From Opitutia bacterium UBA7876 (GTDB lineage Bacteria; Verrucomicrobiota; Verrucomicrobiia; Opitutales; Seribacteraceae), in contig DLRY01000046.1 of NCBI GenBank assembly GCA_002500665.1, positions 6,462-70,461 of the forward strand: 64,000 bases of DNA, in the 5' to 3' direction. Made by a program: the position numbers and the translations under genes. The notes under the pieces are model-generated. The model was not told the origin of the DNA, did not search any database, and saw only the letters and a list, made by a program, of their open reading frames with translations. Of this stretch, positions 3,185 to 38,977 are shown in pieces (position 1 is the stretch's first letter; the number at the start of each line of letters is the position of its first letter).

Positions 3185-4630
3185 TTAGGCGTCCTCGTCC
3201 GCATATTCCCAAGGAAGAGGAAACGAAACCTTTTTCTGCTCCCAAGGCTTGAAAACGTCAAAGATTTTCCCCGGATTGAGGATACCCTTGGGGTCTAGCG
3301 TTCCCTTGATCGCCCGCATTGCGCCCCACTCGGCCTCGCTGAACTGCAGGTGAGCAAAAGGAGTCTTAGCCAACCCAATACCGTGCTCACCGCTGATCGC
3401 CCCACCCAAATCGATGACTTTCCTCATCAGTTTCTCAAGAGCCGAAACGGCCCGCCCTGTCTCCTCTGCGTCACTCTCGTCGTACATAAAGTTGACGTGA
3501 AGGTTTCCATCTCCGCAATGACCGAACACGCCGATTTTCAAGCTCGTGTCTTCCCTGAGCAAACTTACGAAGTCCACCAGTTCAATCTGGCGGTCCAGCG
3601 GAACGACCACGTCTTCATTCAACTTGGTTTCGGCAAGCTTCTTCATGGCAGGGGAAGCCTGACGGCGAACCTCCCACAGCGTTTCTTCCTCCTCACCACT
3701 CTCAGCGACGCAAGAGCGAACCGAGTTTTGCCCGAGCCAGGCTAGTAGCTTTTCGCTCTGGGCGTTTATGGACGACTCGGTACCATCCAGCTCAATAAGC
3801 AGAACGGCGTGGGAAGCGAGACCGGGAAAGACGTCCTTGCCAGTATATTGTTGAACGCAATCGACCGTCCACTGGTCGAGAAACTCGATGATCGAGGGTC
3901 TGACGCCCATCCTCATCAATTCCGCAGGTGCCGACAGGGCCGAGGCTTCGCTCGAAAAGGCTGCAAGAAAGGTCCTTCTTCCCTCGGGTTGTGGAATCAG
4001 CCTCAAGGTTGCCTCGGTCACTACCCCGAGGGTGCCCTCGCTTCCCACCCAAAGGTCCCGCAGGTTGTAACCGGTGGCAAATTTACGAGTCGCCCTACCC
4101 CAGCGCACGAACTCTCCCGTTGAGAGGAATCCCGCAAGGGCGAGGACGTAATCCCTGGTAACCCCATACTTCACGCAGCGAAGCCCACCGGCATTGCAGG
4201 CGACGTTCCCGCCAATGGTGCAAAACTTCTTGGACGACGGATCGGGGGGATAAAATAGGCCGACCGCAGAGGCTTTTTTCTGCAAATCCTCGACGACGGC
4301 CCCTGGCCCGCAGTTGGCGAGCATATTGCCCTCGTCGATTTCAATCGAGTCCAGGCCACTTAGATCCAAGACCCATCCTCCACCTATGGGGGTCGCCCCT
4401 CCAGTAAGAGAAGATCCGGCGCCACGAGTGGTGACGGGGATCGAGAACTCACTAGCCACTTCCAGAATTTCGCCTACTTGGGCACCGGAAACCGGCCGGA
4501 CGACCGCATCAGGTATCTTTCCGACCTTCAGGCCGTCGAAAGAGGCCGTGGACAAGTCCTCTTCCTCACGGCGAACGCAAGGACCGAGTTTTTTCTCCAA
4601 AAGAGATAGAGCATCTTCTTGTTGTGACAT
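3185..4630 (-). CDS. FAD-linked oxidase, GlcD/D-lactate dehydrogenase family
   Basis: RGAGSSLTGG, PPDPSS, TIGGNVACNAGG, FGHCGDGNLHVN, ISGEHGIG, GILNPGK. Confidence 0.9.
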   Translation of the reverse strand: MSQQEDALSLLEKKLGPCVRREEEDLSTASFDGLKVGKIPDAVVRPVSGAQVGEILEVASEFSIPVTTRGAGSSLTGGATPIGGGWVLDLSGLDSIEIDEGNMLANCGPGAVVEDLQKKASAVGLFYPPDPSSKKFCTIGGNVACNAGGLRCVKYGVTRDYVLALAGFLSTGEFVRWGRATRKFATGYNLRDLWVGSEGTLGVVTEATLRLIPQPEGRRTFLAAFSSEASALSAPAELMRMGVRPSIIEFLDQWTVDCVQQYTGKDVFPGLASHAVLLIELDGTESSINAQSEKLLAWLGQNSVRSCVAESGEEEETLWEVRRQASPAMKKLAETKLNEDVVVPLDRQIELVDFVSLLREDTSLKIGVFGHCGDGNLHVNFMYDESDAEETGRAVSALEKLMRKVIDLGGAISGEHGIGLAKTPFAHLQFSEAEWGAMRAIKGTLDPKGILNPGKIFDVFKPWEQKKVSFPLPWEYADEDA

Positions 4631-4715
4631 GATGGGGCGGAACCTAAATGGAGCATTCTATTGCTTTGCCGGCCGATTGCTAAGAAAAAAGCGATAGGAG
4701 AGGCGTTTTGGCCCG

Positions 4716-5135
4716 CTAACCCGACTTTGTGTCGAGGCTCAGCTTGGTCAGGTTGCGTTCCTTAAGCATATTGACCACGTCAATGACCTTCTGATACGGC
4801 AGGGCGCGATCCCCTCGAATATGGATGGTCGGCTGCTCGCCCGCTGATTCGGCTATCGCATCGAGGCGTCCTTCAAGTTCACCCTTGCTGACCGAATCCT
4901 TGCCCCACTGGTACTTACCCTTGGCATCGATGGTGATGAACCTGTCCTCTATTTCCGGTGGAGGCTGAATGGGACCGGGGGCCTGATCCGGGAGATCGAT
5001 CCGGTTGTACTGTTCAATAACCGGGGTGGTGATCATGAAGATGATGAGCAGGGAAAACGCCAAATCGATCAAGGGGGTTACGTTGAGATCGGAAATGACC
5101 GCCAGTTTGTTCTCTCTCTTGAAGTCTCTCGCCAT
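4716..5135 (-). CDS. exbD: ExbD/TolR biopolymer transporter
   Basis: LNVTPLIDLAFSLLIIFMITTP, then IRGDRALPYQKVIDV. Confidence 0.9.
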   Translation of the reverse strand: MARDFKRENKLAVISDLNVTPLIDLAFSLLIIFMITTPVIEQYNRIDLPDQAPGPIQPPPEIEDRFITIDAKGKYQWGKDSVSKGELEGRLDAIAESAGEQPTIHIRGDRALPYQKVIDVVNMLKERNLTKLSLDTKSG

Positions 5136-5165
5136 ACTAAACGATTACCCTTTCAACGATTCTGC

Positions 5166-5855
5166 TCAGGAATCTTTCTCAAGCTCGATCCGGTCGGCCA
5201 AGTTGCTTGCGAAGTTCTCCAACTTGGTCATACATGAGCGGGTCGTCCCGAGGAGGTGATTATAAGCAAAGACGATGGGAATCGCCACGCAGAGGGCCGC
5301 CACGGTGGTCAGCAGGGCACCCGAAACCCCCGGAGCCAAGTGCTCGATGGTGGCTCCCCCCTTGTCCATGGTGCCGAAAGCGTCCATCACGCCCCACACC
5401 GTGCCGAGCAAGCCGAGAAAGGGAGCTCCGGAGACGATGGTGGCCAGCCAGTACATCTTGGCCTCATACCTCTCCGCGACCTCGGCCAAGGCCCGCTTGA
5501 TCGCATTCTCGACGTAGTTCATGCGAACCTTCCCGTCATGCATGCTTCTGCGGGCAGCCTCCATGGCCCGCGAGCAGATCTTCAGATATGGACTCCCCTC
5601 CCCCGGAAAAAGGGCGTCGTCGTAATCGTATATGGAGGGAAGGTCGTTGAGACGCTTTTCATCCCGCGCGTTGTGTTTGTTCGCCTTCTTGAGCTCCTGA
5701 AACTTGCTCAGCATCAGGCTGACCGCATAGCAATTCATCACGGCTAGAACCACGATTACCATCTTGCCGGCGAAGTTCGAGTCCACGAAATACTCGAATA
5801 GTTTCAAATCGGCCAAAAAAACGTTTCCCGCCCCAAACAGGTCAAAGTCGATCAT
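5166..5855 (-). CDS. exbB: ExbB/TolQ/MotA proton channel
   Basis: SGAPFLGLLGTVWGVM and GVSGALLTTVAALCVAIP; directly upstream of exbD. Confidence 0.9.
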   Translation of the reverse strand: MIDFDLFGAGNVFLADLKLFEYFVDSNFAGKMVIVVLAVMNCYAVSLMLSKFQELKKANKHNARDEKRLNDLPSIYDYDDALFPGEGSPYLKICSRAMEAARRSMHDGKVRMNYVENAIKRALAEVAERYEAKMYWLATIVSGAPFLGLLGTVWGVMDAFGTMDKGGATIEHLAPGVSGALLTTVAALCVAIPIVFAYNHLLGTTRSCMTKLENFASNLADRIELEKDS

Positions 5856-24094: not shown

Positions 24095-26032
24095 CTAGGG
24101 AACCCGAAGAGGTTCGCCAAGCTCAACCCGGATGGCTCGGATCATGGCGTCCGCATTCAGGGGATTCAAACCGGCCAGCATGACCGAGACGTTTGGGTAA
24201 AGAACATCCTCTCCCTCGGCAGGCAAGAATACCAAGTTTTCGTATTTCCTAACCATGAGCCTGGGGTTGGTCTTGCTCTGAACGTCCTCGAAGGATGCGC
24301 CTGCAAGCTCGAGAGCTTTGAGGTACTTCTCCATCTTTTCGTCCATTGCCCTTTGGGTCAGAGGTCGCTCGACCTCTTTCTCCTCCTCGGTGAAAACAGA
24401 ATTTCCGCGCTTGTCGATAGACTTAACCTGAATTTTATCGATGTCCTTAAGGACAAGAATCCCGTTCCTCACTACCAACCCGGCCGACTTCGATTTTATG
24501 CCGGACGCCAGAACCCCCTTCCAAAGCCGGCTCGAGAATTCCCTTTCATAAAAGCTCGAGTCCTTTTCCAGTTCAAGCCCGATGGATGAGAAAAGTTGGT
24601 CCGTTTCTCCTACCAGGTAGCTTAGATCAGAGGGAGAAACCGGGCTTCCCCTTGCGTATTCTTCACTCGTTATGCGCAAGGAGCCTAGCGAGACTTCGTC
24701 CGGCATAACGCTCAGGGCAAATTCCTTGTCCTTCACGCCGACCTGCATCCCCCAGGAAGTGCGAAACAGGGAGAAGGCATCCTTCAAGGCAACGAGATTA
24801 TCCGCCTCCACCTGCTTTCCTTTGTAGGCATTATAGTTGAAAAGCGCGACGGCCAGGGCTGCGAAACTGTCCTCGCCTTGGGGGTTTTGCTCGGCGAACT
24901 TCTCCTCGACGCGTTTTACGATCAGTGAAAGTTCATCCGCCTTGGCCTTGAACTCCGGCCCCAGTGCAGTGACGTCGAACATCGGAGCAACAACCGGGTC
25001 GGGCGGATCCTCCACCTCGGGAGGAGAATCGACCCGGGCAAGATCATCGGAAACGAGCTCTCCATCCTGGTAGGTTTCATCCTTCAGGATGGTTCCATCC
25101 TTTGTCCTGAGGGTCCTACTGCCATCCCTCTTTCCGGACCTGTAGGAACCTTCGTCGTACTTTTGACCGTCGTTATGCCAAAGGGCGTAACGACCATCCT
25201 TAAAACCATCGGCATAGAAGGTTTCGGCCGCCTTCTGTCCATTGGGGTGCCAATTCGTCATCCGGCCATGAAGCTTGCCGTCCTTGAAGAAACTCTCCTC
25301 GCTCTTTTGACCATCCTCGTGCCAAGTCATTCTCATGCCGTTCAATAATCCCAAGCTATAACTGGATTCGGTCATCCTGTTCCCATTCGCATAGTAGCCG
25401 ACTATCCTGCCGCTCCCCTTGGAAAAGGCGCTTAGCGGACACTCTTCGCCATCAGGTTTCCAGGAAAAGGCCCGAAAGGGTCTGCCATTCTCAAATTCGA
25501 CCAAGTCCGCTACTTGATCGGTATCGAAAAAACGACGAACACTCCATCCGCTGAAGGCTTCATCGGCACCGAGGAGAAACACGCGACCCTCTCTTTCCTC
25601 CAGGTCAGAGGCATCGGTAGCGTTTCCCTCGACTGCAGCCTGGTCGAAGGGAACTCCCTTTTCGGCGCCGCCACTCTCGTGCTCAGGATTGCCAGGATCG
25701 GCTTCAAAGGATCCTCCTAGAAAATAAAACGCAATGCAGGCAAGCCCCAACCCTACAAGGATAACCGTGAGAATTGTATTAAGCGCTCCGCCCGCACCTC
25801 CCTTGAGCACGATTCGCTTGCCTTCATCGGTTTCTTCTTCTTGGGCGAAATCCTCATCCGGAACTAGATCCAAGGCCTTCGATATGGAAACCCATTCGTC
25901 CTCTCCCACTGTGCAAATATGGTCCCCGGGATCGAAGGAACCTTCCTCCACTTTTCGCTTGATCTCATTCAAGCCGTAAGGACCTACGCTCTCACCGTCC
26001 TTGTTTACCCAGTGTAGATCTGAATCCCCCAT
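24095..26032 (-). CDS. GYF_2 (DUF4339) + TM + MORN2 (YwqK-like) repeats + unknown C-terminal domain
   Basis: N-terminal WVNKDGESVGPYGLNEI...EW, TM ILTVILVGLGLACIAFYFL, repeats WHEDGQKSEE/WHPNGQKAAE/WHNDGQKYDE. Confidence 0.8.
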   Translation of the reverse strand: MGDSDLHWVNKDGESVGPYGLNEIKRKVEEGSFDPGDHICTVGEDEWVSISKALDLVPDEDFAQEEETDEGKRIVLKGGAGGALNTILTVILVGLGLACIAFYFLGGSFEADPGNPEHESGGAEKGVPFDQAAVEGNATDASDLEEREGRVFLLGADEAFSGWSVRRFFDTDQVADLVEFENGRPFRAFSWKPDGEECPLSAFSKGSGRIVGYYANGNRMTESSYSLGLLNGMRMTWHEDGQKSEESFFKDGKLHGRMTNWHPNGQKAAETFYADGFKDGRYALWHNDGQKYDEGSYRSGKRDGSRTLRTKDGTILKDETYQDGELVSDDLARVDSPPEVEDPPDPVVAPMFDVTALGPEFKAKADELSLIVKRVEEKFAEQNPQGEDSFAALAVALFNYNAYKGKQVEADNLVALKDAFSLFRTSWGMQVGVKDKEFALSVMPDEVSLGSLRITSEEYARGSPVSPSDLSYLVGETDQLFSSIGLELEKDSSFYEREFSSRLWKGVLASGIKSKSAGLVVRNGILVLKDIDKIQVKSIDKRGNSVFTEEEKEVERPLTQRAMDEKMEKYLKALELAGASFEDVQSKTNPRLMVRKYENLVFLPAEGEDVLYPNVSVMLAGLNPLNADAMIRAIRVELGEPLRVP

Positions 26033-27112: not shown

Positions 27113-28528
27113 ATGATTGGTCTTTCCGGGAGCATTCAATTTGTTACCTCCAGTATGGAGAGGTTTTCCGTGCGGGCGCATGCCTCGGTCAACAAGATCC
27201 TAAGTTCCGGGGATCCAGTAAGACGAGCGAGGCATGAAAATGATGCGGGAGCCATCAGTTTAGCGGCTAAGTTGTCATTCGACTCCGCCGCAAAAAGAAA
27301 CTCGATAAGTTCCTTTCAAAATGCCATCTCGTTCATGCAGTTGCAGGAATCAGCCCTCAACCAGGCCGACAGGATATATCAGGAAATGATATCCCTGGCC
27401 TCCCTTGCGTCCGATCCGTCCGCTAATCAGGAGAACCGGCATTTGCTTGGTCAGCAGTTTGAGTCGCTCAGGCAGCAATCCTTGGACCTCAATCAAAGTA
27501 CCTTCAATGACAGATACCTCTTCGATGAGCTTGCTGCATCAACGGATTACACCGTCGATTTTGCCTCCGGGCTTACGAACGACACACCGGCGACCATCTC
27601 GGGTTCGCCAAAGGTCTGGGAGGTAACGAAGGATGTTTTGTACAACACCGGAAAGATGACCATCGACGTCAATTCGGGTACCGCGGGCGACCGCTACATG
27701 CTCAAGCAGGACAACCTTGTTATCTTCGACTCCGGTTCTTGGGACACGGCTGGCAACGCCAAAACCTATGATTATGACCGCTTCGAGATCGAGTACGGTC
27801 CCGATAAGGAAACCACTTTCAAGTTCATCGCTCAATCCGACGGAAACTCCAGCTCGGTTGACTTGGATGGCCCCGATGGGATAAAGGGGACAGCCGATGA
27901 TGGAGTTCTCCCCTCGGACAATACCTTCGACAACAAACCCTACTACCTTAACAACTTGGGGCTAACCGACGACGGGACTAGTTCCGGAGTGGCAAACAGT
28001 TCGGAGGTTTTATACACTAACCAAGGCCAAGTCACCACCGCCAAGTCGAATCCCGACACGACTAATCTCACCCTGCGGATTGAATCCAACACCCTCTTCC
28101 AGATCGGTGCCGAATTCACCAAACCGAACGCCGATGATATTCTGGTAGGTAATGCAAGCGACATACAGGTCGCGATGAAGCCATTGGGTCTTGGCTTGCT
28201 TCTTTCTCAAGAAGCGGGAAACCCGCCCCTTTCAATTGCCACCGCATCCGAAGCAGTCAAAGCCCTGCAAAGCATCACCAAGGAGATTGAGGGAGTCGCA
28301 GAGCAATTAGGCACGCTCCGCAGTAACTTCACCAAGGTCGAACTTGCTATGGAAGGGGTACAAAAAAAGCTGGCCAGCCAAGAAAATGTCATGTCCATCA
28401 TTTCGGACGAAGGCTTGGCTGAAGATTTGACTCAGCTTAGTAGAGATAGAATACTCCGATCCCAAAGCGCAGCCATCATGACACAGGCAATCTCCGTTAA
28501 CGAGGGAATCGTCGACTTGATTCTCTAA
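27113..28528 (+). CDS. Divergent flagellin-family protein
   Basis: N-terminal LSSGDPVRRARHENDAGAIS...QNAISFMQLQESAL and C-terminal AEQLGTLRSNF...ISDEGLAEDLTQLSRDRILRSQSAAIMTQA match the flagellin D0/D1 helices; ~200-aa beta-rich insert. Confidence 0.8.
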   Translation: MIGLSGSIQFVTSSMERFSVRAHASVNKILSSGDPVRRARHENDAGAISLAAKLSFDSAAKRNSISSFQNAISFMQLQESALNQADRIYQEMISLASLASDPSANQENRHLLGQQFESLRQQSLDLNQSTFNDRYLFDELAASTDYTVDFASGLTNDTPATISGSPKVWEVTKDVLYNTGKMTIDVNSGTAGDRYMLKQDNLVIFDSGSWDTAGNAKTYDYDRFEIEYGPDKETTFKFIAQSDGNSSSVDLDGPDGIKGTADDGVLPSDNTFDNKPYYLNNLGLTDDGTSSGVANSSEVLYTNQGQVTTAKSNPDTTNLTLRIESNTLFQIGAEFTKPNADDILVGNASDIQVAMKPLGLGLLLSQEAGNPPLSIATASEAVKALQSITKEIEGVAEQLGTLRSNFTKVELAMEGVQKKLASQENVMSIISDEGLAEDLTQLSRDRILRSQSAAIMTQAISVNEGIVDLIL

Positions 28529-28732: not shown

Positions 28733-29530
28733 AAAAGGTTGGGACGGCGCTCGCCACACGCTCGTTCCCGGATGCCAGCATTTGGCGCATGTATAGCTGC
28801 TGACTCCCCGACGCCATTCGAAGAGGTATGTCTCCGTTTCGGCCTCATGACAGGGCCGTCGAATCAACTTTGGACTGAAACGATTTTGAGGAAAGGCTTC
28901 TGGGCAACTTCAGCACTCCATGAGGAGTGGCTTCGGCTACTCGGCTACTCTCTGGTTACCTTCTGGATTGTAGCCACTTCGACTCAAGCACGCGTCTGGC
29001 AAGCCAGACTCGTACTTTCATCAATACGGGTATCGCCTCATACCTCTCAGGTCATTTGGGGTAACTACATCGCGGTGTAAGCCACGAATCAAAACGGTCG
29101 AAGAATCTTACAATTCTCGACCAACCGAAACAACCAACTTATACCAAACCCGAAGGCTCTGCACGACACTCACTACCAATGTCAATTGGTTGTAACATTT
29201 ACTGGAAAGTCGCGGTAACGACCATGCCTCTTGGCAACCGCTATGATAAGCAGACGAGACCTGTCCTTTTATCAATAACTACGAAAGTCGCGGTCTCAAT
29301 GCAACTTTCGCCCTCCCTGCGCTAAACGTGTTTTTCGCGAGCACGGCTCGCGATACGCAGAGGGTGACGTTTGCCTTCTCGATCAAACCCCAAGAGAGGC
29401 TCAAACGCGAAGGAGCGGAATTCTCCAGTAGAATCCGACCTTTAACCTGGCGTAAACCAGGCTTATCCATGTCTGGTCTTGTATCCGACACAAGTGCCGG
29501 AGCCAATTCCTGAACATTCTGTCAAAGAAC
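28697..29530 (-). ncRNA. Large (~800-830 nt) structured non-coding RNA; MISL-class candidate (GOLLD-like as alternative)
   Basis: No credible CDS; flanked by a promoter and a terminator. More than 12 hairpins read by eye, including a 10-bp stem at 29282-29310, an 8-bp perfect stem at 29335-29353 and G(CUUG)C at 28994-29009, plus complementary hairpin loops. G-U pairs work on the minus strand. The family assignment rests only on size, taxon and context. Confidence 0.75.
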
Positions 29531-29536
29531 GAAATC

Positions 29537-29575
29537 ATAATACTGTCACCCAAACGAACTTGTCAAATTTTTTTT
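29537..29575 (-). promoter_or_regulatory. Near-consensus sigma70 promoter driving the large ncRNA
   Basis: Minus strand TTGACA (29566-29561), 18 bp spacer, TATTAT (29542-29537), with an upstream A-tract resembling an UP element. Confidence 0.75.
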
Positions 29576-29601
29576 TCATAATTTACTGATTATCATACTA
29601 A

Positions 29602-29744
29602 TGTGAATATAACGTGAATATTCTGTGAATAAAGCTAAAGGAATATCGCAACGGTTACCAACATTCCCTTTTAAAGCCTAAAAGTATAATTTTTATAAGA
29701 ATGTGAATGAGTTATGATTATAAATCTCGAGGGATTGTGAATAA
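29602..29744. repeat. Five co-oriented DnaA-box-like 9-mers in an AT-rich patch
   Basis: TGTGAATAT 29602, CGTGAATAT 29613, TGTGAATAA 29624, TGTGAATGA 29702, TGTGAATAA 29736. TGTGAATAA is the reverse complement of TTATTCACA and fits TTWTNCACA. Confidence 0.6.
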
Positions 29745-29874
29745 CTGAACCGCCCGAAAAAAAGTTTAGAAAAAATTTAGTTTTTTTCTTTTTTGGAAGA
29801 AAAAATAAAAAATGTCTAAGGGGTTGGATTCTCGATGGTTGACTATTTCAATGAGGGTGGTTCATCTTGGTTGA

Positions 29875-30690
29875 ATGCAGCCAGTCCTATGCTCCGCAAT
29901 CATGCTCCTCTCTCCACTTGGCAGCATCGAGGCAAACTCCACCCCAGCCTTCGACGTGGACGATCAAGGCATGCTAGCGAAGGTTCTGCAACATGCGGCC
30001 AAGGGAAGGTGGAATGAATTCCGGAACAAGTCTTTGCCTTTCGATGAGTTCAGGCAAAGGAACGGACGACAATACTTTCGCTCTGAAGAAGAACCTTTTT
30101 CCGGATGGTATGGACAATGGGACGATAACGGAACCTTGAGAAACCTACGTCACTTTTGGGGTGGAATCTCGTGGGGACCTATCTACGGTTGGCGGACAAA
30201 CGGCATGAAGTCTCACCAAGGAAACTACGAAAAAGGCAGGAAGCACGGAACTTTTTATTTTTGGAACGAAAACCTCACCAAGATTAGGGAAACCAATTAC
30301 AAGAACGGCAAACTGGACGGTAATTCCACAACTTGGTACGCGAGCGGCAGGGAAAGCTGTCGGCTATCCTTCAAATCGGGCAAGATTCTTTCCGCCATCG
30401 GGTGGAAGCCCGATGGGCAAAGATGTCCGTCCACCAGAGTCACCGATGGGGTCGGCTTGGTTTTGCTCTACGCCGATGAGGAAACGGGAACCAAACCGGC
30501 AACTCCCACCAAAGTGCAGCAGCTCGTAATTGAGAGATACGACAATGGAAACAAGCGGGAGGAAGGAACCTACCTGAACGGCAAAAAAGAAGGGCTTTGG
30601 ATCTATTACCGCACCGACGGGACTGAATTCTTCAGGGAAACCTACCAGTCGGGCTCCCGGCAAAGACTCATCCAGTCCATAGAGCGTTAA
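29875..30690 (+). CDS. Exported MORN2-repeat (YwqK-like) protein
   Basis: Hydrophobic N-terminus; repeats WRTNGMKSHQGNY, WYASGRESC, YDNGNKREEGTYLNGKKEGLW. Confidence 0.75.
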   Translation: MQPVLCSAIMLLSPLGSIEANSTPAFDVDDQGMLAKVLQHAAKGRWNEFRNKSLPFDEFRQRNGRQYFRSEEEPFSGWYGQWDDNGTLRNLRHFWGGISWGPIYGWRTNGMKSHQGNYEKGRKHGTFYFWNENLTKIRETNYKNGKLDGNSTTWYASGRESCRLSFKSGKILSAIGWKPDGQRCPSTRVTDGVGLVLLYADEETGTKPATPTKVQQLVIERYDNGNKREEGTYLNGKKEGLWIYYRTDGTEFFRETYQSGSRQRLIQSIER

Positions 30691-37384: not shown

Positions 37385-37436
37385 TTTGCTTTTCCTTCTC
37401 GACAGACGAAAGCACGCTCTTACTTTGCAGTTTCTG

Positions 37437-38222
37437 ATGTCGGCCAAAACCATAGCCATTGCCAATCAAAAGGGAGGCGTAGGGAAAACCACAACCACCG
37501 TCAACCTAGCGGACGCCCTTGCATCCTCAGGCATGCCCACCCTGATAGTCGACATGGACCCGCAGGCCAATGCCACCAGCGCCCTTGGCTTGGAGAAGAA
37601 ACCCGGCGCAGGCATCTACGAACCGCTGCTGTCGGGGAGCGACTTGTCGGGCAGGGTCATATCGACTAACAGGGAAAACCTCTGGATCGTTCCTTCCGAG
37701 CTTGATCTCGCCGCGGCCGAACTTGAATTGAGCAGCCAACCCAACTACTTGGTCAAGCTCCGCTCCTCCCTCCGCGCACTCTCCCAAAACTATGGTCTTC
37801 ACGCCATTCTCATCGACTGCCCTCCTACCCTCGGCCTTCTCTCCATGAATTCACTCTGCGCCGCCGACTTACTTCTCGTTACCCTGCAATCCGAATACCT
37901 CGCCCTCGAGGGACTCGGGCAGATTGTTGGCGTCGTCAACCAACTTAGGGAATCGGGGGCCAACCCCGGCCTTTCTCTCGGTGGAATCGTCATGACGATG
38001 TACGACAACCGAACCCGACTGTCCTTCGAGGTCTGGCAGGAAGTCAACCTTCACTATCCCGACGAGATCTTCCGCACCGCCATTCCCCGTACCGTCCGCC
38101 TGAGCGAAGCTCCGAGCTTCGGGAAGACCATTTTCGAATATGATCCGAACGGTCCCGGAGCGAAGGCTTATCTCGCCCTCGGTAAGGAAGTCAAATCTCG
38201 TTTCTTCTCTAGCGAATCCTAG
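37437..38222 (+). CDS. parA: ParA/Soj family ATPase
   Basis: IANQKGGVGKTTT, VDMDPQANATS, IDCPPTLG, IPRTVRLSEAPSFG. Confidence 0.93.
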   Translation: MSAKTIAIANQKGGVGKTTTTVNLADALASSGMPTLIVDMDPQANATSALGLEKKPGAGIYEPLLSGSDLSGRVISTNRENLWIVPSELDLAAAELELSSQPNYLVKLRSSLRALSQNYGLHAILIDCPPTLGLLSMNSLCAADLLLVTLQSEYLALEGLGQIVGVVNQLRESGANPGLSLGGIVMTMYDNRTRLSFEVWQEVNLHYPDEIFRTAIPRTVRLSEAPSFGKTIFEYDPNGPGAKAYLALGKEVKSRFFSSES

Positions 38223-38977
38223 TGAAATTTCTGGGAAAGCTGATCTCTTCCGTCAAGGGGAAGAAAAATGCATCCAGTGGAGGGGACTCACTTCCAAGTG
38301 AGTTGCGTGACTTCGAGAGAAGAATAGGATACAGGTTTCGTAATCCCAGACTGCTGATGGATGCCCTTACCCATCCTTCCTTTCATCAACGTAACAAAGA
38401 CAAACCAAACAACCAGAGGCTCGAATTTCTCGGCGACTCGATCCTCGGAGCCATACTTGCGGAAAACCTATACCTTTCCCAACCTGATGCGGATGAAGGC
38501 ATCCTCAGCCAAGCCAAAGCCGCACTGGCCCGGGGAAGCTCACTTGCCGAAGTTTCTCGCAAGCTCAAGCTCGGCTCTTTCCTTCGCATGAGTCCATCTG
38601 AAAAAAGAAACCGTGGCAACGAGAGGGAATCCACCCTAGAGGATGGCCTCGAGGCCCTGATTGGAGCCATTTTCCTGGACGGCGGACTGGAGGCGACGAG
38701 AGAAAAGGTTCTTCTATGGCTCGGCAAACTCGACCTGACCCTTGACCAAGACCAGGACGAAATGAACCCCAAAGGCCGGTTGCAGGAACTCGTCCAGGCA
38801 TCCCGACCAGGAGAGTCAATCCGCTACAAAGTCGAAAGGGAATCCGGCCCACCGCACAAAAAGAGATTCTTCATGTCGGTCATGATCGGAAAGAAAAATT
38901 TCGGACAGGGAGAGGGCAAAAGTAAAAAGGAAGCGGAAGAGCAAGCCGCTAGGCAGGCCTTGAAAAAACTGGATTGA
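38222..38977 (+). CDS. rnc: Ribonuclease III
   Basis: ALTHPS, NQRLEFLGDSIL, EALIGAIFLDGG, dsRBD PKGRLQE...SKKEAEEQAA. Confidence 0.95.
   Translation: MKFLGKLISSVKGKKNASSGGDSLPSELRDFERRIGYRFRNPRLLMDALTHPSFHQRNKDKPNNQRLEFLGDSILGAILAENLYLSQPDADEGILSQAKAALARGSSLAEVSRKLKLGSFLRMSPSEKRNRGNERESTLEDGLEALIGAIFLDGGLEATREKVLLWLGKLDLTLDQDQDEMNPKGRLQELVQASRPGESIRYKVERESGPPHKKRFFMSVMIGKKNFGQGEGKSKKEAEEQAARQALKKLD

Follow-up and report, generated by a model that had tools for sequence, protein, structure and literature searches.

A conserved array of DnaA-type boxes upstream of the MISL RNA promoter, a candidate DnaA-controlled region in Opitutales-type Verrucomicrobiota

The AT-rich patch that precedes the MISL RNA gene studied here is best explained as a conserved control region on the upstream side of the MISL promoter, predicted to be controlled by DnaA and possibly also to titrate DnaA (probability about 0.65). 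Boxes of the DnaA consensus occupy a defined place relative to this promoter and are conserved together with MISL across species. Judging by the comparison of sequences, a link between the MISL RNA and the replication machinery is probable. The genome (G000) is a draft MAG of 3.7 Mb in 103 contigs with a GC content of 55%, and its DnaA is nearest to that of MAGs labelled Opitutia/Opitutales (Verrucomicrobiota). The window, that is, the whole 64-kb stretch of DNA that was analysed, corresponds to C51:6462-70461 and has a GC content of 53.7%.

The covariance-model match to MISL in the window is full-length and lies above the gathering score (302.5 versus 274.6 bits). The transcript probably extends from about position 29530 to the predicted terminator (Table 1), and a tRNA-Ser is located just past the latter. 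The Rfam entry for MISL covers the RNA only, and the gene downstream of the patch is a full-length member. Two further ORFs were observed on this side of the locus: a 471-aa ORF with a flagellin N-terminal domain (27113-28528, plus strand), just before the tRNA-Ser and MISL, and a 645-aa ORF with hits to GYF_2 and MORN_2 (24095-26032, minus strand). Of the 24 other genomes of the same genus that were searched, most of which are incomplete MAGs, only two yielded MISL; this rarity may reflect assembly gaps or real loss. The MISL RNA motif was reportedly first described by Weinberg et al. in 2017. The main text of Weinberg 2017 contains no mention of MISL, and among the papers searched none was found on "MISL RNA", on its promoter, or on MISL linked to DnaA.

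A strong promoter of the sigma-70 type lies between the MISL match and the boxes. It is followed by a near-palindromic start element, GTTCTTTGA(A/C/T)AGAAC, also given as TTCTTTGA(A/C/T)AGAAC, which is near-invariant and found 6-7 nt past the -10 hexamer in 33 of the 34 MISL loci compared. The element is common to the window (29516-29530) and to loci L003-L011 and L069-L093, and its arms are invariant in sequence. It probably marks the transcript start, as a 5' hairpin or as an operator for a second regulator. We took the conserved TTCTTTG anchor as the putative +1 and counted all box positions from it. In the alignment of MISL loci, TTGAC is observed at an equal distance from the anchor in most relatives. 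The putative start precedes the beginning of the Rfam model by 38-205 nt, and hence MISL has a 5' leader that is not covered by the model. In addition, most loci contain a TTTTAT(G)/ATTATG-like element about 10 nt upstream of the MISL -35 hexamer (29577-29582, minus strand, in the window).

The patch (29576-29830) fills the gap between the MISL promoter and a divergent ORF. With 175 A/T bases out of 240 (72.9%), the segment 29581-29820 is the AT-richest 240-bp stretch in the window, the runner-up having 60%. The patch contains five co-oriented 9-mers of the TTATTCACA type. Read on the plus strand in order of position, they are TGTGAATAT, CGTGAATAT, TGTGAATAA, TGTGAATGA, and TGTGAATAA; the minus-strand readings, which are co-directional with MISL, are listed in Table 1. 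The first box lies 36 bp upstream of the MISL -35 hexamer, and the three proximal boxes stand in an 11-bp register, their centres being about 76, 87, and 98 bp ahead of the putative start. An earlier note, made from this sequence alone, had drawn attention to the base composition, to the five 9-mers, two of them exact matches to TTWTNCACA (29624 and 29736) and three spaced by 11 bp, and to the A/T tracts further upstream; our recount gives the same composition, and all of these boxes and tracts are present.

Table 1. Coordinates of features around the MISL promoter (positions of the window)
Feature	Position	Strand	Details
MISL terminator	28732-28702	-	terminator prediction
MISL RNA (Rfam RF03079)	28746-29468	-	cmscan 302.5 bits, E 2.6e-89, model positions 1-751
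Near-palindrome GTTCTTTGACAGAAT	29516-29530	-	6-7 nt past -10; TTC[ACT]TTG[AG] anchor
MISL promoter	29537-29576	-	promoter scan, 11/12 matches
MISL -10 TATTAT	29542-29537	-	
MISL -35 TTGACA	29566-29561	-	then 18-nt spacer
MISL promoter A-run, UP-element-like	29567-29576	-	
First, proximal DnaA-type box ATATTCACA	29602-29610	-	5' end at -81 from anchor; PWM 13.4 bits
Second box ATATTCACG	29613-29621	-	11 bp from first; PWM 9.1 bits
Third box TTATTCACA, consensus	29624-29632	-	11 bp from second; PWM 17.3 bits, the maximum
Fourth, distal box TCATTCACA	29702-29710	-	-181 from anchor
Fifth, distal box TTATTCACA	29736-29744	-	-215 from anchor
T-tract/A-tract inverted repeats (I5, I8, I18)	29757-29812	.	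upstream of box array
Divergent 271-aa ORF, MORN-like	29875-30690	+	MORN_2 E 0.012, below cut-off; outside conserved module
ParA-family ATPase ORF (AAA_31/CbiA), then RNase III (rnc)	37386-38977		

The two exact TTWTNCACA matches alone are within chance, as the window contains four such matches versus 2.3 expected. The array as a whole is in clear statistical excess. The hexamer GTGAAT occurs five times on one strand of the patch, and none of 5000 dinucleotide-shuffled versions exceeded three; in the entire 3.7-Mb assembly, the patch is the sole site with at least three GTGAAT within 150 bp. We also ranked the whole assembly with a PWM built from the boxes of other loci, the own locus being left out. 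The MISL upstream region came top with five hits (67.5 bits), and the next cluster has three hits (42.4 bits). The upstream region of dnaA is among the next few in this ranking. The second-best box cluster of the genome, a tandem of TTATTAACA and TTATTCACA spaced by 11 bp (G000:C62:4126-4145), was found just ahead of a 459-aa ORF (4182-5561, plus strand) whose N-terminus, by eye, resembles a DEAD-box RNA helicase.

For the comparative analysis, 34 MISL loci, drawn from many families of the order (Opitutales-type Verrucomicrobiota), were oriented on the RNA; since these genomes are relatives, the loci are non-independent samples. Boxes with at most one mismatch to TTATTCACA were counted in the 300 bp upstream of the anchor, yielding 94 boxes on the sense strand and nine on the antisense strand. 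Shuffled sequences contained 2.0 boxes on average and seven at maximum, and 14 boxes were found in the other 111 kb of the 34 loci. At least one box is present at 33 of the 34 loci, which answers positively the question, raised in the earlier note, of whether MISL RNAs in other genomes also neighbour DnaA boxes; at least two boxes are seen at 27 loci and at least three at 19.

Not only the orientation but also the position of the boxes is conserved. Their positions peak at -82/-83 (17 loci), -93/-94, -116/-117, -167 to -169, and -202, and the commonest spacing of adjacent boxes in the relatives is 11 bp (11 cases). The boxes of the window, at -81, -92, -103, -181, and -215, fit this plan; a box at -81 is observed at two loci and a box at -215 at three. 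A phylum-wide sample contained a single MISL locus from outside the order, and it shows the same layout. Deviations were observed inside the order. Loci L069-L073, all from one family, have only 0-3 boxes, some of them antisense, and no clear sigma-70 hexamers, and in one GC-rich family without recognizable sigma-70 hexamers a box adjoins the -35 position.

The array is independent of the gene on its other side. The upstream neighbours of the MISL loci encode a FolC-type ligase, an RseP-type protease, a fasciclin, a LacI-type protein, a symporter, or a MORN-like protein, and they are often co-directional with MISL, with their 3' ends facing the boxes. Because the neighbours differ and are often co-directional, the array belongs to MISL and not to the neighbour.

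Upstream of the boxes, a T5+ N0-4 A5+ palindrome, exemplified in the relatives by T6-C-A6, is located at -213 to -271 in 12 of the 34 MISL loci, versus two hits in the other 110 kb. The A/T tracts of the window do not match this strict pattern and were assigned to the place of the palindrome by eye. A similar T8A6 palindrome was seen beside distal boxes upstream of dnaA in G060 (L098). The start palindrome, the TTTTAT element, and the T/A palindrome indicate that further factors act at the MISL promoter region.

Several observations point to DnaA as the protein that recognizes the boxes. The logo of the 94 boxes reads T-T-A-T-T-C-A-C-A, positions 3 and 9 being the most variable, and coincides at each of the nine positions with the general DnaA box TTATNCACA. 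The near-complete relative G035 has 58 occurrences of TTATNCACA versus 20 of the reversed control. The upstream regions of dnaA were compared in eight genomes of different families (L001, that is, G000:C17:29343-32825; L012-L015; L096-L098). In all eight, TGTGAATAA, which is the TTATTCACA 9-mer in the antisense orientation, is located just upstream of the dnaA start codon. The distance is 27-34 nt in seven genomes; in L098, the eighth, the box is at -9 of a start that is probably misplaced. Boxes paired in the 11-bp register are also observed about 300-340 nt upstream of dnaA. A box just ahead of the dnaA start is the classic place of DnaA autoregulation, and the sites upstream of dnaA look like conserved autoregulation of dnaA in the order. 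The genome under study encodes a complete DnaA with the N-terminal, AAA+, and helix-turn-helix domains. With the box preference of DnaA in this lineage taken only from the universal consensus and the sites upstream of dnaA, it is quite probable that DnaA binds the boxes upstream of MISL.

A possible mechanism is as follows. DnaA would bind the patch and set the rate of MISL transcription, probably by forming an ATP-dependent oligomer along the phased boxes. The oligomer would assemble on the proximal array, with the consensus boxes as its anchor, and may contact the distal boxes across the intervening 70-85 bp. Bound DnaA would then modulate RNA polymerase at the MISL promoter, and the level of the MISL RNA would be coupled to the state of the replication initiator. 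Activation seems somewhat more likely than repression, because the boxes lie upstream of the -35 hexamer and, in most loci, none of them overlaps the core promoter. The densest box cluster of the genome could at the same time keep DnaA off the origin, as the six non-origin clusters do in Bacillus subtilis (PMC3245932), regulation and titration being compatible. The suggestion made from the single locus that a DnaA-binding site stands back to back with the RNA promoter, and could link the RNA to the replication cycle, is backed by the comparative evidence.

The patch had also been proposed to be the chromosomal origin, with the DnaA-box array adjoining an AT-rich unwinding element. The base composition, the five phased co-oriented boxes, and the A/T tracts fit such a reading, and there is no denser box cluster anywhere in the assembly. 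The cited presence of parA/soj about 7.6 kb away holds in part: an ORF for a ParA-family ATPase is indeed found at that distance (37386-38222), but it is followed by the gene for RNase III and not by parB. The distribution of GC skew speaks against an origin. In this assembly the skew is informative, as most contigs hold coherently to one sign, with values of about 0.05, and it stays negative over the whole 88 kb of C51, on either side of the patch. The MISL locus likewise has no change of skew sign in five complete or near-complete relatives (G035 and the single-contig genomes G120, G060, G144, and G168). In G035, MISL is flanked on either side by 100 kb of positive skew, and sampling of the chromosome places the minimum of the cumulative skew, where it switches from negative to positive, at 895-905 kb, beside dnaN (an ORF at 904.7-905.8 kb that matches the dnaN locus of G000 with 53% identity), whereas MISL is at 1,435 kb, about 530 kb away. 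The dnaA and dnaN genes of G000 are on other contigs, C17 and C7, respectively. In the relatives, MISL and dnaN are between 69 kb and 1.8 Mb apart, and a constant origin-proximal placement of MISL was therefore rejected, whereas the distance of the patch to the promoter is constant. Finally, past the boxes there is no conserved DnaA-trio periodicity: after the proximal box, the central A was present in 6 of 6 trios in the window and in 2.6 of 6 on average across the loci, and we took the former for chance. Hence the patch has the DnaA-box cluster of an oriC and lacks both the skew switch and the adjacency to dnaA or dnaN, and an origin at this place, rejected on the skew of the own contig, on that of five relatives, and on where dnaA and dnaN are located, is highly improbable. 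It is less so, albeit still unlikely, that the array serves mainly replication as a site similar to datA, DARS, or the DnaA-box clusters (DBCs) of Bacillus subtilis, which titrates DnaA or alters its nucleotide state. The proximity of the MISL promoter would then be secondary, or transcription of MISL would gate the site. This explanation is compatible with control of the MISL promoter, and the two may coexist. It agrees with the fact that this densest cluster, with at least three boxes, is outside any origin, and co-oriented boxes in the 11-bp register would suit DnaA oligomers; in B. subtilis, according to PMC3245932, replication is initiated early once the six non-origin clusters are deleted. 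At the same time, fixed distances between the boxes and the start of MISL over many families reflect a need of a promoter rather than of titration, and the array has no conserved chromosomal position, as the varying distance between MISL and dnaN demonstrates.

The remaining alternatives assign the repeats to another protein or to another gene. Direct repeats with an 11-bp period, as present in the patch, are typical of sites of the OmpR/PhoB family, and a winged-helix response regulator of this type could recognize them. However, the repeat equals the universal DnaA box over nine positions, the identical 9-mer is found ahead of dnaA in eight of eight genomes, and single boxes at fixed distant positions (-167, -202) are unlike the sites of dimeric response regulators; the repeat also presumably does not fit the Pho box. 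A regulator of this kind therefore seems a rather unlikely binder. A CRP/FNR-type inverted repeat, TGTGA-N6-TCACA, was rejected, since the TGTGA cores, five in all, stand on one strand as direct repeats, and a Fur-box-like stretch noticed by eye between the boxes and the -35 hexamer is not conserved in the relatives. The earlier note had considered a direct-repeat operator shared by the RNA and the divergent MORN-like gene. For the RNA, this idea is compatible with the explanation preferred here. For the MORN-like gene it is not supported: although this gene is divergent, with its ATG 130 bp past the last box, its MORN_2 match is below the cut-off, and this neighbour is not conserved even within the genus, a LacI-type co-directional gene taking its place at L009. 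Moreover, the boxes persist beside the 3' ends of co-directional genes, and their positions are fixed relative to MISL. With upstream neighbours varying between loci, an operator of the MORN-like gene was rejected as very improbable.

The true origin was excluded from the MISL patch. The earlier note had regarded a skew inversion and a canonical oriC mapping elsewhere as evidence against an origin at the patch. The former was found in G035, as described above; a box-rich canonical oriC was not found, as a search of the whole assembly with the E. coli consensus TTATCCACA (at most one mismatch) gave a maximum of three boxes per 300 bp. The upstream regions of dnaN in G000 and G035 contain only a few weak boxes, and the same is true of the skew minimum of G035 (G035:C1:895000-906300, L060-L061). 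The dnaA gene of G035 is about 250 kb from dnaN and the skew minimum, within a region of uniform skew. Since the skew minimum is at dnaN and dnaA is this far away, dnaA, dnaN, and the origin are unlinked in the order.

The MISL array resembles several known systems, each of them in part. The low-affinity DnaA sites of E. coli oriC are co-oriented with 2-bp gaps, that is, with an 11-bp period, and allow for DnaA oligomers, as reported by the Leonard and Grimwade laboratories. The proximal 9-mers of the MISL locus (29602, 29613, and 29624) have the same 2-bp gaps. Unlike the oriC arrays, the MISL site is off the origin and has no skew switch and no conserved DnaA-trio or clearly defined unwinding element next to it. 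Similarly to datA, DARS1, and DARS2 of E. coli, it is a non-origin cluster of DnaA boxes that could act on the DnaA pool. The E. coli loci are defined by hydrolysis of DnaA-ATP, release of ADP, and sites of IHF and Fis, whereas the MISL array is locked to a promoter. A parallel to the autoregulation of dnaA is that, in the same genomes, the 9-mer TTATTCACA is conserved at MISL as well as about 30 nt ahead of dnaA. Here, the conserved box at dnaA is single, antisense, and near the start codon, which suits repression, whereas MISL has an array upstream of the -35 hexamer.

The closest parallel in layout is provided by the DBCs of B. subtilis. Six clusters of DnaA boxes outside oriC, some of them regulating neighbouring genes, are described in PMC3245932; examples are the clusters at sda, ywlC, and yydA, and a related known case is DnaA acting as a transcription factor (PMC3245932 and PMC4447404). 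Like these clusters, the MISL array has several boxes and is intergenic, off the origin, and next to a promoter. A dual role, regulation of the adjacent gene and retention of DnaA, is attributed to sites of this type. The differences are that the target at MISL is a large structured non-coding RNA of about 0.8 kb and not a protein gene, that nearly all MISL boxes are co-oriented with transcription at positions fixed order-wide, and that binding to them is predicted. What appears to be new is the combination of the order-wide fixed geometry and an orphan large structured RNA as the presumed target.

A more far-reaching scenario is that the MISL RNA itself participates in the control of replication, with DnaA driving or restraining its synthesis from the oriC-like phased array and the RNA, or its transcription beside the largest presumed DnaA-binding cluster of the genome, feeding back on the availability of DnaA or on the timing of initiation. 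We consider this scenario doubtful; if it is true, MISL would be the first case of a large structured RNA within a circuit of replication initiation in bacteria.

In summary, MISL is a large, intricately folded bacterial RNA without known function, and the position-locked array of DnaA-type boxes provides a concrete hypothesis about it. For studies of DnaA, the locus would be a natural case of oriC-like phased arrays at a promoter. These data also offer an initial look at DnaA boxes in Opitutales-type Verrucomicrobiota, a group with no linkage between dnaA, dnaN, and the origin defined by skew, and they contain a warning for genome annotation, in that the densest cluster of DnaA boxes in a genome need not be the origin. 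If MISL is part of the DnaA regulon, its function may relate to replication, to the cell cycle, or to the growth state.
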